IMG/VR virus record: IMGVR_UViG_3300019776_000165
Location: 29,562-93,561 of that record
From: a virus
Length of the DNA stretch: 64,000 bases
Reading direction: 5' to 3' (one strand)
In this document: in pieces, positions 2,017 through 55,771 of the stretch
How the letters are laid out: the number at the start of each line of letters is the position of its first letter
Position numbering within the stretch: the first letter of the stretch is position 1
The notes under the pieces: generated by a model
The model's database searches: none
Told to the model about the DNA's origin: nothing
Seen by the model: the letters and a program-made list of their open reading frames with translations, nothing else
Translations under genes and position numbers: made by a program

Positions 2017-2145
2017 TGTTATACTGAAATTAGACATGCCAATCGGGTGTCTGTAAGAAATACTGTGCTACGGGCAGTGTAAAAACGGTAGTGTAACTAC
2101 TGTAAAAATGGTATCGTAGCACAGTTGTCGTCTAAGGAGACAACA
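2017..2145 (+). promoter_or_regulatory. Extended -10 promoter and structured hsp20 5' leader with SD-sequestering hairpin
   Basis: TGtTATACT 2017-2025; stems ACTGTGCTACG/CGTAGCACAGT and GTTGTC-g-TC-TAAG-GA-GACAAC. Confidence 0.55.
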
Positions 2146-2664
2146 ATGGATACAAACTACCACCCCACTGACCCTCATGAGAAGTACAAGAAAAGGTACC
2201 CTAACTCTATTGAGGTTGACACGTGGAAGACCCCTCCGCAGGTTCAGAAGACCCTAACTATTGCGGACCTATTTCCTCGTCTAGACCGCCTATCTATCGG
2301 CTGGTCCCCACTCCTTGACCAACTCAAGGAAGTAACTAACAACAAGCCCTCTTATCCTCCATACGACATTGTGTCGTTGAAGGATGACGTCAACCTGCTC
2401 AATGTGGCTGTTGCTGGTTTCACTAAGAAGGAACTCAAAGTATCCATTCAGGATTCCGTCCTAACCATTGAAGGTAAGCGGGCAATCAAGCAAACTGGTG
2501 AACTTCTTTACCAAGGCATTGCTGCTCGTGATTTCAAGTTAGAGTTGGCTGTCGCTGAGTACTGGGAAATTACTAATGCTCAGTTGGAGAATGGTATGCT
2601 TACCATTCAGTTCAACAAAGAACTTCCTGAAGAAAAGAAGCCAAAGGTTATTGACATCAAGTAA
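2146..2664 (+). CDS. hsp20: Small heat-shock protein (Hsp20/IbpA-like)
   Basis: SYPPYDI, AVAGF, YQGIAARDF, LENGMLTI, PKVIDIK. Likely start ATG 2146 after AAGGAG. Confidence 0.92.
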   Translation: MDTNYHPTDPHEKYKKRYPNSIEVDTWKTPPQVQKTLTIADLFPRLDRLSIGWSPLLDQLKEVTNNKPSYPPYDIVSLKDDVNLLNVAVAGFTKKELKVSIQDSVLTIEGKRAIKQTGELLYQGIAARDFKLELAVAEYWEITNAQLENGMLTIQFNKELPEEKKPKVIDIK

Positions 2665-2678
2665 AGATGTGATAATCT
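2651..2678 (+). promoter_or_regulatory. SigA-type promoter for the RNA operon
   Basis: TTGACA 2651-2656, 16-bp spacer, extended -10 TGa-TAATCT. Confidence 0.7.
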
Positions 2679-2685
2679 TTTTCTT

Positions 2686-2852
2686 ACTAAGGGTTAATCG
2701 CCTTAGTCGGAAAGTTGGCAACCGTAATAAGCCAAACGCTGTCCAGGCAGAGTGAACAATCTGGCGTGAGGAGTTCTACGAGAAAACTCGGAGTTAGTCA
2801 CTCGGCTTAGGGAACGACTCACGGGGCACCAGCCTGATTAGTTGGGTGCCCC
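2686..2852 (+). ncRNA. Unassigned structured RNA A
   Basis: Successive stems ACTAAGG/CCTTAGT, TTGGC/GCCAA, CCAG/CTGG, CGTGAG/CTCACG junction, GGGGCACC/GGTGCCCC; no credible ORF. Confidence 0.6.
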
Positions 2853-2856
2853 ACTT

Positions 2857-2929
2857 TGACCTATGGCGCAATTGGCAGCGCAAGGAACTGTTAATTCCGA
2901 GGTTCTTGGTTCGAGTCCAAGTAGGTCAG
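2857..2929 (+). tRNA. tRNA-Asn (GTT)
   Basis: Acceptor TGACCTA/TAGGTCA, anticodon arm GGAA-CTGTTAA-TTCC, T-loop GGTTCGAGTCC. Confidence 0.93.
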
Positions 2930-2945
2930 CAAACAGAATCTCGAC

Positions 2946-3113
2946 GGAGAGTCTGGAGCATGGCTGAACGAAGCCCCTTGTCTAGATGGGGTGAGAAAGG
3001 CACACGGTTGGGATTAGCGTCCCCGCTCTTAGCGGAGCACGGCTGTGGTAGGACTAAGGCGGTACTATAATGTGGTATCTAGACTTCTCCTTGGTGGTAA
3101 TAGACAACCCACC
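2946..3113 (+). ncRNA. Unassigned structured RNA B
   Basis: 12-bp closing helix 2946-2957/3078-3090; twin hairpins with identical TTAGCG loops; loop TTGTCTA complementary to loop TAGACAA. Confidence 0.68.
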
Positions 3114-3124
3114 TGCTCACCTTT

Positions 3125-3196
3125 GCCTCTATAGTTAAACGGCTATAACCACGCTCTTGTAAAGCGTAATTGAGGGTTCGATTCCTTCTAGGGGCT
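3125..3196 (+). tRNA. tRNA-Thr (TGT)
   Basis: Acceptor GCCTCTA/TAGGGGC, anticodon arm ACGCT-CTTGTAA-AGCGT, T-loop GGTTCGATTCC. Confidence 0.92.
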
Positions 3197-3212
3197 CGGA
3201 AAGGAGCACAAC

Positions 3213-3500
3213 ATGACTACCATGCAAAACTTAAAGCGTAAACTAGCCGCTTCAGAAAGTCGTTGGGAAGCAGTTCAACTTACTGCTGCTAATGCACAGC
3301 ATGAACTTGACTACGCTGTGGCAATCTTTGAGAAGCACAAAGAAGAGTTGTCTACTGAAGAGTTGCAATCGACTATGGCTCAGATTGACGAGCAGAAGAA
3401 TAAAATCAAAAACTATTTGTTGAATGGACGTCAGGTTTTCACTCAAGACAGCCTGCGTCTAAACGGCGCTATAAGCCGTTTGGAGGAGAAGAATGCCTAG
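3213..3500 (+). CDS. Coiled-coil hypothetical protein
   Basis: SD AAGGAG; helical heptad composition. Confidence 0.7.
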   Translation: MTTMQNLKRKLAASESRWEAVQLTAANAQHELDYAVAIFEKHKEELSTEELQSTMAQIDEQKNKIKNYLLNGRQVFTQDSLRLNGAISRLEEKNA

Positions 3501-4432: not shown

Positions 4433-5125
4433 ATGGATATTCAATTTCGTTCAGATATGACCGTAGAACTAATCGACTCAATGGGAGGTGACTACAGTGT
4501 TGTTCGGAGTGCTCGTGTTAGTAGCGGTAGTGTTGCTAATGATTCATCTAGCGACGTGGGGCTAATCAACTACCTCATGCGTGACCGTCACGGCTCGCCA
4601 TTTGAGCACGCTGTGTTTACTTTCCGTATTGAAGCCCCACTATTTGTATTCAGGGAGTTTCAGCGTCATCGTATGGCTTCCTACAATGAGGAGTCTGGCC
4701 GTTACAAGGAACTAGAGCCTGTGTTCTATGTCCCAAATGGGGACCGTAACCTAATTCAGATTGGCAAACCTGGTGCTTACACATTTGAACCAGGAAGTGA
4801 ATACCAGCAAAAACTTACTATTGACTTACTTAAACAAACTGCTAGGGGAAGTTACAATGTGTACTTCAACTTGCTAGGTGCTGGGGTAGCCCGTGAAGTG
4901 TCCCGAATGGCATTGCCTCTAAACATCTACAGTTCAATGTATGTAACTATGAACGCTCGTTCTCTAATGAACTTCTTGTCGCTTCGCAGCGACGAGCAGG
5001 GAACTTATCCGTCGTTTCCACAGGCTGAGATTGCTTGGGTGGCTAGGGACATGGAACTTATATTCAGTGAGAAAATGCCTCACACTCACATGTCGTTTGT
5101 AAAGAATGGGCGAGTAGCCCCTTAG
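4433..5125 (+). CDS. thyX: Flavin-dependent thymidylate synthase
   Basis: HGSPFEH and RHRMASYNEESGRY signature; leaderless-type promoter TGtTAGGAT 7 nt before ATG. Confidence 0.95.
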   Translation: MDIQFRSDMTVELIDSMGGDYSVVRSARVSSGSVANDSSSDVGLINYLMRDRHGSPFEHAVFTFRIEAPLFVFREFQRHRMASYNEESGRYKELEPVFYVPNGDRNLIQIGKPGAYTFEPGSEYQQKLTIDLLKQTARGSYNVYFNLLGAGVAREVSRMALPLNIYSSMYVTMNARSLMNFLSLRSDEQGTYPSFPQAEIAWVARDMELIFSEKMPHTHMSFVKNGRVAP

Positions 5126-5199
5126 TGGCTCCCCGCCAAGGATTCGAACCTCGATAACCAGGACCAAAACCTGGGGTCTTGCCGTTAGACGAACGGGGA
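5126..5199 (-). tRNA. tRNA-Gln (TTG) with encoded CCA
   Basis: Reverse complement TCCCCGT...CCAGG-TTTTGGT-CCTGG...GGTTCGAATCC...GCGGGGAGCCA; own TGaTAGGCT promoter 5210-5218. Confidence 0.93.
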
Positions 5200-10154: not shown

Positions 10155-10787
10155 ATGACATACCCAACAGATGACGCAGGCAACGTACAGGTTGACTTCG
10201 TTTGGGGAAACTTTCCCCTACAACCAAACCAGGACCGTGGCCTAAACACCCTAGACTACAGCCTAGACAACCACGTAATCGCTGACATTGGCTGGTCTAA
10301 CTATCCTTCATTTATTCCTAACTACGCAGGTGACGAAGACGCTGACCTTGAGGTTGTAGTTCCAACCCTTCGTGGCCTTGCCAGAGTAGCCGCTCAGACA
10401 GCCCTTACAGACCTAGGCCTAGTACCTGATGTACAGTATTACCCAAACTTCGGTGAAATCACCAATGTTGTAAGTTCTGGTAAGACTATTACTATTACTA
10501 CATCTACTGCTTGGGGCGATGACCTTCGTCCTGGTGATGTGGTCAGCGTTTACTACAACGACGGAGACGCAATCAGCGGTACTTGGTCAAACGTTAAGTT
10601 GCTGACAATTGATGGCTACACCATTACCTTCAAGGTGGCAACAGCCCCATCGCCTGCCCTTGACTTTGCAACTACTAACAGTTACATGTTCAACAATGAC
10701 AACAACGTAGTTTACGCAGACCCTGTTGCGGGAACCATTGTCAACGCTGGTAGCACAGTAGTTCTATGGTGCATGAGTGGTGACTAA
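10155..10787 (+). CDS. PASTA-domain protein (paralog 2) with inserted beta domain
   Basis: Same N-terminal DDxGNVxVDFxWGNxPLQP; VVPTLRGL...ALTDLGL [insert] PVAGTIVNAGSTVVL. Confidence 0.72.
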   Translation: MTYPTDDAGNVQVDFVWGNFPLQPNQDRGLNTLDYSLDNHVIADIGWSNYPSFIPNYAGDEDADLEVVVPTLRGLARVAAQTALTDLGLVPDVQYYPNFGEITNVVSSGKTITITTSTAWGDDLRPGDVVSVYYNDGDAISGTWSNVKLLTIDGYTITFKVATAPSPALDFATTNSYMFNNDNNVVYADPVAGTIVNAGSTVVLWCMSGD

Positions 10788-10800
10788 TTAACCAAGTAAG

Positions 10801-10842
10801 TAAACCGTGCTGCCGATACACTGGTAGCACGGTTTATTTATT
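10801..10842 (+). terminator. Intrinsic terminator
   Basis: TAAACCGTGCTGCC/GGTAGCACGGTTTA plus T-rich tail. Confidence 0.75.
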
Positions 10843-10853
10843 TAAGGAGCAAA

Positions 10854-11690
10854 ATGGTAGACCCAATCATCCCTTCTGGAGGGAAGTACCCCTCGAAGGC
10901 TGAACTTCAACGTAAAAGTGACTTGGGCTTTATTTTTGAGGATGTCTACGGACTCTCCTACGACCGCCGTACTCGCACTGGTAAAACAGCGGGCGAAGTG
11001 TTTAACAGCGACGAAGCAGTCGCTACTGTGTGGGGCGACACTGAGTACCAAGGTGCAGGAGTATTTTACGCACCTGATAAGTATGGGTACGACACTAGAA
11101 CTGATGAAAACATCGGAGATAGGTCCACAGCGTTTGGTCCGCAATCTCTCGTAGATGTTCCGACATCTTCCACTAACTACTCTAGACCGAGAACGGTTGC
11201 TGCTGCTTGGAGTCCTAGTGAGAACGACCCTATGCTCGGCACCATGACCGTGGTGTTCCGTGATGGCACATTTTACAACTACTACAAGGTAACTCGTTCT
11301 GAGTGGATTGCGTTCCAGTCTTCGTACTCAAAGGGTCGACCATGGCTAAACCGACGCTCAACCAGCGGTAAGCCTGGAGCCCAGGCTGTAGATGGCTTGT
11401 TTATTGATAAAGAACGAGGGCCAGCAGACCCTGAGAGTGTCCCAGCCGCTATCCGTGAGCAGTTGTACCGTGTGGCTCGTACCCAGCAGATTGTGTCTAA
11501 TAGGTACATGCGCCCAGGTAAAAAGACTCACGACATGACTAGCGTATTTACAGGCGGCAAGTTGGGTGAAACTAAACGAGTTAAAGAGCCCCTTCAGCGG
11601 GCAGAGTACCGCAAACCTACCAGTACTCCTGGTAAAAACCCTCACAGACTTAATGGTACGAATCCTTATCACAAACGAAAAGCAAGTTAG
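10854..11690 (+). CDS. KTSC-domain protein
   Basis: MTVVFRDGTFYNYYKVTRSEWIAFQSSYSKGR. Confidence 0.7.
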   Translation: MVDPIIPSGGKYPSKAELQRKSDLGFIFEDVYGLSYDRRTRTGKTAGEVFNSDEAVATVWGDTEYQGAGVFYAPDKYGYDTRTDENIGDRSTAFGPQSLVDVPTSSTNYSRPRTVAAAWSPSENDPMLGTMTVVFRDGTFYNYYKVTRSEWIAFQSSYSKGRPWLNRRSTSGKPGAQAVDGLFIDKERGPADPESVPAAIREQLYRVARTQQIVSNRYMRPGKKTHDMTSVFTGGKLGETKRVKEPLQRAEYRKPTSTPGKNPHRLNGTNPYHKRKAS

Positions 11691-25039: not shown

Positions 25040-25965
25040 TGGCTATTACTCAACTACCAGCGGGCGTAAAACTTCGTAGAACAATTACCTCAACTGGTGC
25101 TGTAGATACTGCTGGAATGCCAGGAGTGGTATTTGCTGTGGTTGTTGGTGGTGGGGGCGCTGGTGGCAGCACGTCTACCTCCAACGGTGGCGGTGGAGGT
25201 GGCGGCGCAGGCGCTGTAGTTAGCGCTTGGGTGCCTGCCACCAACTATGCCACTATTGGTGCTGGAGGGACTGGTGTAGCATACTCCTCAGGTGGTGCTG
25301 GTACTGGTGTTGGTAACACAGGTGGAACAACTATTTATTCGAATCTTTACGCTTACGGAGGCACAGGCGGGGGAAGAAGTGCCACTACACCTAGCAGTGG
25401 TAACTACGGTAGTGGTGGCGGTGGCGAGGCTGGACAATCAGCCTCGGCGTCAACAAACGCCGCAACCATTTCAAACTTTATGTACTCTTTTGGCGGAGCA
25501 GGTGGCCTTGGTGGAGGCTATTCGGGCACAGTGACTTACGCTGGAACTGTTGGTGGTGCTGGACAGTCTGGTGGTGGCGGAGGAGGAAGTTGGTATAACA
25601 ACGTAAACGGAACCGCTTCTGCCACTGCTGGTGGTGCTGGAACGTTCGCTGGCGGCGGGGGTGGTGGTGTATCTTCAAACGTGGCTACTGCAACAATCCT
25701 CACTTCTGGTGCTGGTGGAGCAGGAGTTTTTGCGGGAGGAACTGCAGCAACCTCTACCTCCACTTCTACTGTTAAGTTTCTTTCAGGAGGTGGCGGAGGC
25801 GGGCTACTAGCCGCAGGAAGTAACGGAAGCATCTCCACCACAAGCGCTGACGTTGTTGGTGGTGCGGGTGGTTCTGGAGGAGGAGGCGGTGGCGGTGGCT
25901 ACACCCCCACTACTGGTGTTGTTGGTGGTGCTGGAGGGTCTGGCGCTGTTCTATTGTATTGGTGA
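25039..25965 (+). CDS. Glycine-rich adhesin-like protein
   Basis: Repeated GGGGG tracts; ends GGSGAVLLYW. Confidence 0.75.
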   Translation: MAITQLPAGVKLRRTITSTGAVDTAGMPGVVFAVVVGGGGAGGSTSTSNGGGGGGGAGAVVSAWVPATNYATIGAGGTGVAYSSGGAGTGVGNTGGTTIYSNLYAYGGTGGGRSATTPSSGNYGSGGGGEAGQSASASTNAATISNFMYSFGGAGGLGGGYSGTVTYAGTVGGAGQSGGGGGGSWYNNVNGTASATAGGAGTFAGGGGGGVSSNVATATILTSGAGGAGVFAGGTAATSTSTSTVKFLSGGGGGGLLAAGSNGSISTTSADVVGGAGGSGGGGGGGGYTPTTGVVGGAGGSGAVLLYW

Positions 25966-31644: not shown

Positions 31645-32000
31645 TGGCTGCACAACCAAAGAAGGTAACTAGTACACCTACTAGCCGAAGAATCGGCAAG
31701 GTTCTGGCCAGCGGAACTTACCCTGCTGGTAGCCCTCAGGCAGGGAAAAAGATTGGTCCAGTAGGAAAAGTAATGGGAAAGTTGGCTGCTAAAGCCTCTG
31801 TTTCTATTGCTAACGAGACTGCTAAGACCACCCGAAAGTCCCAAGCCGACCAGGCTGCTAAGAAGCAGGCTCGCAGTGCTGCGTACCCTAAGGGCACTGG
31901 AACTTCTCGCCTTAGCGAGCCTCCTCTAACTAAGGCTAAGGACTACACCAAAGCCCTAAAGAAGAATGGCGGCAACCCGCTTCCTCCTAAGGGAAGATAA
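31644..32000 (+). CDS. Lys/Ala/Pro-rich basic protein
   Basis: TAATG coupling; H1-like composition. Confidence 0.65.
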   Translation: MAAQPKKVTSTPTSRRIGKVLASGTYPAGSPQAGKKIGPVGKVMGKLAAKASVSIANETAKTTRKSQADQAAKKQARSAAYPKGTGTSRLSEPPLTKAKDYTKALKKNGGNPLPPKGR

Positions 32001-32020
32001 GTCCAAGGCAAACAAAGTTT

Positions 32021-32047
32021 AACCCCCAGCAATGGGGGTTTTTCTTT
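32021..32047 (+). terminator. Intrinsic terminator
   Basis: AACCCCCA-GCAA-TGGGGGTT plus T tract. Confidence 0.8.
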
Positions 32048-32120
32048 ATCCTTAAAGCGTAGATATTCGTGCGAATACTACCTACTTTTGTAGCCTTGCG
32101 CCTTTTAAAGGATTCTGCTG

Positions 32121-55285: not shown

Positions 55286-55771
55286 ATGGCTGGCCTGCGT
55301 AGCGATGACGAGATTTTCAAAGCCTTTGAAGGTCTTGACAAAGTTCCAGGGTCTATACGGCCACGACGTGAAGTTAGCGAACTTGCTAAGAAGCGTCAAG
55401 CAAAGTCTCTCGGAGAGTCTAATGGGTGGGATTCAAACCCCATCATAAAGACTCTTCGAGGTAAAGAGGTGGAGATGTTCACTATCAGTTCTCTGGCGCA
55501 AGCCTTGGAGAAGGAAGTAGTGACTATCCGCCTCTGGGAGAAGAAGGGGTACATCCCTAACGCTCCTTTCCGTCTACGGTCTAAGAACCTCAACGGTAAG
55601 AAAGTCAATGGCAACCGTGCTTACACACGGGAACTTATTGAAATAACTATCGAAGAGTTCTCCAGTCGTGGACTTCTAGGCTCCGCTCGTGTAGAGTGGA
55701 GTAAGTACGGAGACTTAACTGAGGCACTAGTTGTCCGATGGAAAGAATCCGTACAATCTAACACCCAATAA
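55286..55771 (+). CDS. MerR-like HTH DNA-binding protein
   Basis: FTISSLAQAL...TIRLWEKKGYIP...RAYT. Confidence 0.75.
   Translation: MAGLRSDDEIFKAFEGLDKVPGSIRPRREVSELAKKRQAKSLGESNGWDSNPIIKTLRGKEVEMFTISSLAQALEKEVVTIRLWEKKGYIPNAPFRLRSKNLNGKKVNGNRAYTRELIEITIEEFSSRGLLGSARVEWSKYGDLTEALVVRWKESVQSNTQ

Follow-up and report, generated by a model that had tools for sequence, protein, structure and literature searches.

We describe here a small cassette of non-coding RNA genes in an uncultured myovirus. The window, that is, the whole stretch of DNA analysed (64,000 nucleotides, nt), represents bases 29562-93561 of the 93.5-kb IMG/VR virus record IMGVR_UViG_3300019776_000165, which is rated 98% complete. 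Between an hsp20 gene and an open reading frame (ORF) of 95 amino acids (aa), two structured RNAs, designated RNA A and RNA B, alternate with two tRNA genes. On balance we consider it probable that this is a tRNA-interleaved RNA cassette, in which RNA B is a manA RNA acting as a free-standing molecule and RNA A represents a separate, uncatalogued family. The loci with which it was compared carry L-numbers (L052, L186, L247, etc.) and their own coordinates. On the plus strand, the order of the features is as follows:

2125-2664, plus strand: hsp20/ibpA-type small heat-shock gene (Pfam HSP20, E 1.7e-14)
2651-2678, plus strand: promoter-like site recognized by sequence, with a -35 TTGACA (2651-2656), a 16-nt spacer, TGn and a -10 TAATCT (2673-2678)
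2686-2856, plus strand: RNA A, a 171-nt non-coding RNA of a putative uncatalogued family, from its fold and its homologue at L247:4624-4790
2857-2930, plus strand: tRNA-Asn (GUU), by ARAGORN and the Rfam tRNA model (61.7 bits)
2937-3123 (whole spacer 2931-3124), plus strand: RNA B, a manA RNA (RF01745) of a divergent subtype without P7, by cmscan
3125-3197, plus strand: tRNA-Thr (UGU), by ARAGORN and the Rfam tRNA model (59.9 bits)
3201-3500, plus strand: ribosome-binding site (RBS) AAGGAG (3201-3206) and the 95-aa ORF (3213-3500), from the ORF list

The cassette (2651-3197) is compact, with gaps of 0-6 nt between the RNA units. The last hairpin of RNA A ends at 2852 and is followed by a 4-nt tail and then by tRNA-Asn; RNA B begins 6 nt past this tRNA and ends 1 nt short of tRNA-Thr. 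The original prediction, which was made from the sequence alone, had described spacers that nearly touch the tRNAs and contain no credible ORF. Both statements were borne out, as were the two tRNA genes, on which ARAGORN and Rfam agree. According to the ORF list the longest frame in 2665-3212 is 39 aa, except for a 74-aa GTG frame that crosses tRNA-Asn. Two small frames within RNA A, one of 31 aa opening with TTG and one of 39 aa on the minus strand, were rejected because their start context is not credible. The notion of an RNA-only cassette, with tRNAs marking the ends of two discrete folded RNAs, is further supported by comparative anatomy: its RNA modules recur elsewhere with ends that fall at a transcription start, at the end of a tRNA or tmRNA, or at a terminator. 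The earlier observation was, then, largely right and its interpretation half right.

RNA B, a divergent manA RNA

RNA B scores 61.5 bits against RF01745 in cmscan (gathering score 55.2; E 3e-13) and covers model positions 1-192 of 192. The alignment retains P1, the long-range closing helix, P3, the P4 junction, P8, P9 and the 3' tail with few non-standard pairs, and the closing helix is kept through changed, that is compensatory, bases. The P7 positions are deleted and the P5 loop, which carries GAUUAG, is unlike the consensus; lacking both P7 and the canonical loop pair, RNA B was therefore filed as a divergent subtype. Its folding energy is ordinary (z -0.7 against shuffles), and the structure is backed by the family model and not by energy. 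A very similar copy is present in L052, a member of the same Hsp20 clade (manA 48.4 bits, E 2.4e-9; sequence z 13.7, vs 3.8 against one canonical manA). The original prediction had regarded both spacers as unrecognised and had named a confident Rfam hit as the finding that removes novelty. The cmscan search that it proposed gave such a hit for RNA B and no family for RNA A even at E<=10 (195-nt query), which leaves RNA A as the only uncatalogued one of the two RNAs claimed as new.

With blastn against isolated phages, RNA A and RNA B found only tRNA and chance words. The 20-nt matches of RNA B in L044 and L059 and a 19-nt match in phage ACG-2014g proved to be coding sequence and were discarded; these three were the ones inspected, and 20-nt matches were also obtained in L057 and L063.

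Both spacers had been said to contain hairpin loops complementary to distant loops. In RNA B the P3 loop (2978-2987) can pair with 3077-3084 over 8 Watson-Crick base pairs (bp) and with the P9 loop (3101-3107) over 7. The 2010 description of manA (Weinberg et al. 2010, PMC2864571) presented it as a riboswitch (cis-regulatory) candidate of marine phages and listed ibpA chaperone genes next to it. According to a preprint of July 2026, manA RNAs assemble in vitro into decamers and into an RNA-only cage of 60 subunits through intermolecular kissing loops, as revealed by cryo-electron microscopy (10.64898/2026.07.01.735769), and self-assembly of this kind would explain the complementary loops of RNA B. 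RNA B resembles the family in matching the whole model, in adjoining an ibpA/hsp20 gene (an association listed in 2010, PMC2864571) and in its long loop-loop complements. It differs in its score, 61.5 bits where a cyanophage copy is reported to reach about 100, and in its position between two tRNAs in a non-cyanophage-like myovirus.

The placement of manA in other phages was examined in 120 loci drawn from IMG/VR by a consensus pattern, approximately 116 of which are true manA. A same-strand tRNA lies within 600 nt in four of the 120, and in the rest manA lies between ORFs, the next same-strand ORF in canonical loci beginning a median 84 nt past the core. In L186 a consensus sigma-70 promoter directly precedes P1 and tRNA-Asn begins 9 nt past manA; in L235 tRNA-Thr ends about 5 nt upstream of manA. 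The order in L052 is hsp20, promoter, phage tmRNA (Rfam 121 bits; ARAGORN tag ATQNAYALAA), manA and an intrinsic terminator, with no more than a few bases between the 3' end of the tmRNA and manA. The tRNA-boxed arrangement is real, yet it is a minority one. In the loci just described manA appears to be a modular unit whose ends are set by processing.

Two further observations concern these loci. In L186:3709-3745 and L209:3203-3240 (reoriented copies), both with canonical manA RNAs, a consensus sigma-70 promoter (TTGACA, a 17-nt spacer and TATAAT or TATAAA) ends some 8 nt upstream of P1, so that the first bases of the transcript would be those of manA. In L052, which belongs to a related 95.7-kb phage, the segment 2673-3170 forms an RNA-only operon with no protein gene downstream.

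As a cis-acting element of the riboswitch type, RNA B might instead regulate the 95-aa ORF, with RNA A as an unrelated leader. This agrees with the classification of manA as a cis-regulatory candidate with ibpA neighbours by both Rfam and Weinberg et al. 2010 (PMC2864571), with the short distance from canonical manA to the next ORF, and with the absence of a terminator between RNA B and the ORF. Yet a complete tRNA-Thr intervenes between manA and the RBS, and RNase P would therefore sever the two; such a position is hard to reconcile with cis control. Moreover, manA runs straight into an intrinsic terminator in L052 and into a tRNA in L186, and hsp20 lies upstream here rather than downstream. 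We regard cis regulation of the ORF as improbable. RNA B is here most likely a free-standing RNA that would associate by loop-loop contacts, in the manner described for manA in vitro, and not a switch for the next gene.

RNA A and its homologue in L247

The predicted fold of RNA A comprises the following modules:

2686-2707, plus strand: H1, whose loop (2693-2700) holds UAAUC
2715-2735, plus strand: H2
2743-2764, plus strand: H3
2766-2822, plus strand: H4, multi-branched, including a hairpin (2791-2803) with the loop UAGUC
2823-2852, plus strand: H5, with the loop CUGAUUA (2834-2840)
2853-2856, plus strand: tail

H1, H2, the closing stem of H4 and H5 are predicted with helix probabilities >=0.9. 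The minimum free energy (MFE) is -63.3 kcal/mol, with z -3.1 against dinucleotide shuffles, so that the earlier description of the spacers as extensively base-paired suits RNA A in this comparison; in the wider one, against the genome, it stands out less (see below), and for RNA B the description rests on the family model. The H1 and H5 loops are complementary over 5 Watson-Crick bp and a G-U, which taken alone is at chance level.

Several known identities were considered for RNA A and rejected. As a second manA copy it gave no manA match at E<=10, and alignment to three manA RNAs gave z values of 0.2, -0.2 and -0.7. For a tRNA, tmRNA or tRNA-like element, ARAGORN was blank in 2680-2856 and no clan CL00001 match was obtained at E<=10. 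The matches to Yfr1 (11.7 bits, on the opposite strand) and to other Rfam families were at chance level. Searches with exact 17-19-mers of RNA A returned one coding chance match in viral contigs and then none, and in genome contigs four matches, equal to the chance expectation, in which only the word itself matched. The duplex energies of the whole RNAs (A-B, A-A and B-B) were no better than those of shuffles and are uninformative.

Homologues of the downstream 95-aa ORF served as anchors and gave four further viral loci, among them L247, part of the tRNA array of a related phage contig in IMG/VR. A covariance model built from the single RNA A sequence and run with filters off matched L247 at 4655-4790 (21.4 bits, E about 1e-6), and the match reaches precisely to the first base of tRNA-Trp. 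The whole spacer (4624-4790, 167 nt) lies between tRNA-Asn and tRNA-Trp and begins at the base after tRNA-Asn. Its alignment with RNA A has a z of 5.7, and 0 of 1000 shuffles scored as high. Both RNAs have the same five-module layout, with UAAUC in the loop of the 5' hairpin H1, an identical UAGUC-loop hairpin (H4b), a UUAG junction, and a 4-nt tail before the tRNA; H5, the 3' hairpin, has an identical CUGAUUA loop and a 3'-side bulge on a stem that is largely different. The spacers of L247, like RNA A, have no Rfam match at E<=10, and blastn against isolated phages found only tRNA or chance words.

In the model-made alignment of the two RNAs, which is fitted to the model structure, 96% of the cells are paired and 15 pairs are changed on both sides, seven of them in H5; slid controls of this alignment gave 34-43% pairing and 1-3 double-changed pairs. 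The complement between the 5' and 3' loops is retained in L247 as 6 Watson-Crick bp. The loop complementarity noticed earlier is therefore at chance level in RNA A by itself, but it is kept in the homologue. The L247 spacer differs from RNA A in starting at a tRNA 3' end and not at a promoter, and in its middle hairpins, which align ambiguously. Its long-range 5'-3' pairing is also slightly more stable: the modular fold lies 1.8 kcal/mol above its own MFE, in which the two ends pair over a longer stretch. A second spacer of L247 was tried as a third member and is too weak (7 bits; z 1.8), a distant relative at best. Model matches inside or overlapping ORFs (L250 4451-4567; L256 4607-4778) or overlapping tRNAs (L248, L249) were rejected.

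We propose that RNA A and the L247 spacer are candidate members of a new, uncatalogued RNA family, credible if thinly supported. Its hallmarks are a 5' hairpin with a UAAUC loop, a central branched domain containing the invariant UAGUC hairpin, a 3' hairpin with CUGAUUA, and a 4-nt tail abutting the tRNA.

Several results weigh against this proposal and against the reading of the cassette as a whole. RNA A was missing from the 47 closest Hsp20-clade loci (blastn and covariance model with default filters; 22 of them also with filters off) and from the 116 canonical manA loci, which leaves a family of two members, no more having been found among 257 loci searched. When compared with all 177-nt windows of the genome and corrected for GC content, RNA A stands out by only about 2 standard deviations (sd), an estimate from the fit. 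The changed pairs were counted on an alignment that had been fitted to the model, and RNAalifold on a plain MAFFT alignment of RNA A and L247 failed to recover the helices, because differences in loop length shift the register. RNA B, for its part, has neither P7 nor the conserved loops responsible for the kissing contact of canonical manA. In the L052 copy the loop complements of RNA B are not clearly retained, and most canonical manA RNAs sit between ORFs and not tRNAs. The weak -10 element of the promoter-like site, described below, counts in the same direction.

Some of these points would suit a simpler origin, that RNA A is merely the leader or spacer of a tRNA operon, a 5' stabilising hairpin plus filler that is degraded after RNase P cleavage, and that the likeness to L247 reflects recent descent or module transfer. 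Only one homologue was found, the energy of RNA A is about 2 sd from that of the genome, the 5' halves align poorly, and in the 47 close relatives the slot holds a leader hairpin and other RNA genes. Such filler would not be expected to show 15 double-changed pairs with pairing kept beside invariant loops, or unit ends that are identical relative to the tRNAs in two contexts. In addition, everything else in the slot of the relatives is an RNA gene: the leader hairpin there is followed by a mosaic of an 80-nt tRNA-like element, tRNA-Trp, tRNA-Asn, tRNA-Thr, tmRNA or manA. We consider the leader explanation possible but doubtful, and retain RNA A as a candidate RNA family.

What RNA A might do can be addressed in speculative terms. 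The conserved complement between its end loops might serve as an intramolecular clasp or in head-to-tail self-association. Extending this, RNA A and the L247 spacer may represent a new class of phage RNAs released from tRNA precursors whose conserved complementary end loops (UAAUC with GAUUA) would, as in manA, be put to use, here to clasp the RNA or chain it head to tail, and which may co-assemble with the neighbouring manA RNA, whose P5 loop contains GAUUAG. We regard this extension as unlikely; if it held, the tRNA arrays of phages would serve generally as a platform for expressing RNAs that self-assemble.

A number of side observations were made on these RNAs. RNA A contains four copies of UUAG (p 0.001 vs shuffles; 0.002 per nt window-wide), located in the H1 stem, the H4b loop, a junction and the H5 loop. 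The L247 homologue retains two of them, and RNA B has UUAG in two hairpin loops that adjoin each other. The same 12-mer, GGTCTAATCAAC, is present at L247:4628-4639, in the H1 hairpin of the homologue, and in the P5 region of the L052 manA (within 2963-3140), which hints at an exchange of loop modules or a shared partner. The array on the contig of L247 continues (L247:4863-5279 and L250:6089-6931, same contig) with long, ORF-poor and strongly folding spacers, including one of 186 nt before tRNA-Gly (MFE -69) and about 700 nt before a tRNA-Sec-like match and tRNA-Ser; none has a match in Rfam. The 177-nt windows of the region with the strongest folding after correction for GC content (3.3-4.6 sd) lie at 25081-25320, 55291-55590 and 10681-10920 on the plus strand and at 31831-32100 on the minus strand.

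Transcription and processing of the cassette

The promoter-like site contains the features first reported, TTGACA and TAATCT separated by 16 nt and an extended -10 TGn. The description as near-consensus was overstated, since the -10 fits the consensus at only 3/6 positions, for which reason the site was not called by the consensus scanner. The -35 element lies in the final codons of hsp20. Transcription is predicted to start at about 2685-2686, and the first helix of RNA A begins 8 nt downstream of the -10, where the transcript would begin. Of 38 loci from this Hsp20 clade, 24 have TTGACA in the last hsp20 codons and, 16-18 nt on, TAnnnT just past the stop codon. Clade loci with a different hsp20 end have no -35 and carry instead a GC-rich hairpin with a T run, that is, an intrinsic terminator. 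From this conservation we infer that transcription starts at a clade-conserved promoter overlapping the end of hsp20.

No terminator-like site was located by a terminator scan between 2000 and 3885. The transcript would extend from the promoter across both structured RNAs and both tRNAs and on into the 95-aa ORF. The tRNA 5' ends would be cleaved by host RNase P and the 3' ends by the tRNA 3'-end machinery, with an endonuclease and CCA addition, the latter being proposed because CCA is not encoded in either tRNA gene. The products would be two tRNAs and two discrete folded RNAs. Release of the RNAs by tRNA processing is suggested by the anatomy of the cassette and by the precedent of phage T4 rnaC and rnaD. 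These RNAs (species 1 and 2) of 119 and 139 nt directly follow tRNA-Arg and carry the annotation of small stable RNAs, with no role assigned. They share only the tRNA-flanked arrangement; they come last in the T4 cluster and do not alternate with tRNAs. Aligned with RNA A, RNA B and the L247 spacer, they gave z values of -0.7 to 0.4, and a two-member RNA A model found no match in the T4 tRNA region.

Alternatively, the spacers could be processing or anti-termination signals that direct RNase P or RNase E to the transcript or shield the polycistronic tRNA precursor, and that have no role after cleavage. A strong hairpin does occur 3-4 nt before the tRNA 5' end in RNA A and in L247 spacers 1 and 2. 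On the other hand, the RNA B family occurs mostly without tRNAs and folds into a complex, assembly-competent structure, no boxA-like element was noticed in RNA A (by eye only), and most tRNA junctions in the relatives need no spacer. We judge a purely signalling function very improbable, and favour the release of two folded RNAs.

GOLLD and ROOL are structured phage RNAs that often lie beside tRNA genes and are far longer than 170-190 nt. They had been offered for comparison in the original prediction, and neither is involved: no Rfam match to either was found in the cassette at the gathering score or at E<=10.

Genomic setting and significance

The virus is a myovirus with a tail sheath, a baseplate J protein, an SPP1-type portal and a T4-type terminase; the nearest isolate by terminase is Streptomyces phage BRock, with just 50% identity. 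The Hsp20 protein has 256 homologues at E<1e-30, many of them encoded on 90-98 kb contigs. The 95-aa ORF has six homologues (51-72% identity), and a Pfam search with it was without match. The genome contains three tRNA genes, the third being a tRNA-Gln(UUG) at 5126-5199 on the opposite (minus) strand, which abuts the end of thyX (4433-5125).

The slot downstream of hsp20 in the relatives contains further elements. A conserved element of about 80 nt follows hsp20 in L053 (2590-2675), L055, L064, L066, L069, L072, L078 and L079. It has a 7-bp acceptor-like stem and a T-arm with an aberrant middle, is not called by ARAGORN and has no Rfam tRNA match at E<=0.01, and could represent a tRNA-like RNA that is not yet catalogued. 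In L072 a 280-nt ORF-free spacer (2899-3178) between tRNA-Trp and tRNA-Asn has an MFE of -92 kcal/mol and no Rfam match at E<=0.01. By eye, two tiny ORFs follow the RNA cassette at L048:2600-2890, L078:2728-3030 and L053:2749-2900, one encoding a lysine/arginine-rich peptide of about 35 aa and the other apparently a product with paired cysteines. In L249, from a 91-kb phage with terminal repeats, ARAGORN calls a tRNA with a four-base anticodon (cagg), and adjacent to it is a short match to the Rfam tmRNA model (3138-3226 and 2930-3012, both on the minus strand).

Since its description in 2010, manA has remained an orphan riboswitch candidate. Here it is boxed by two tRNAs, and in L052 it lies between a tmRNA and a terminator; gene regulation is not easy from either position, which argues for production of manA, in these phages at least, as a free RNA whose ends arise by tRNA processing. 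RNA B is a known family in an unusual and informative position. If both RNAs are confirmed, RNA A and RNA B would provide a matched pair for in vitro assembly work, and phage tRNA clusters would be a place to seek further stand-alone structured RNAs.

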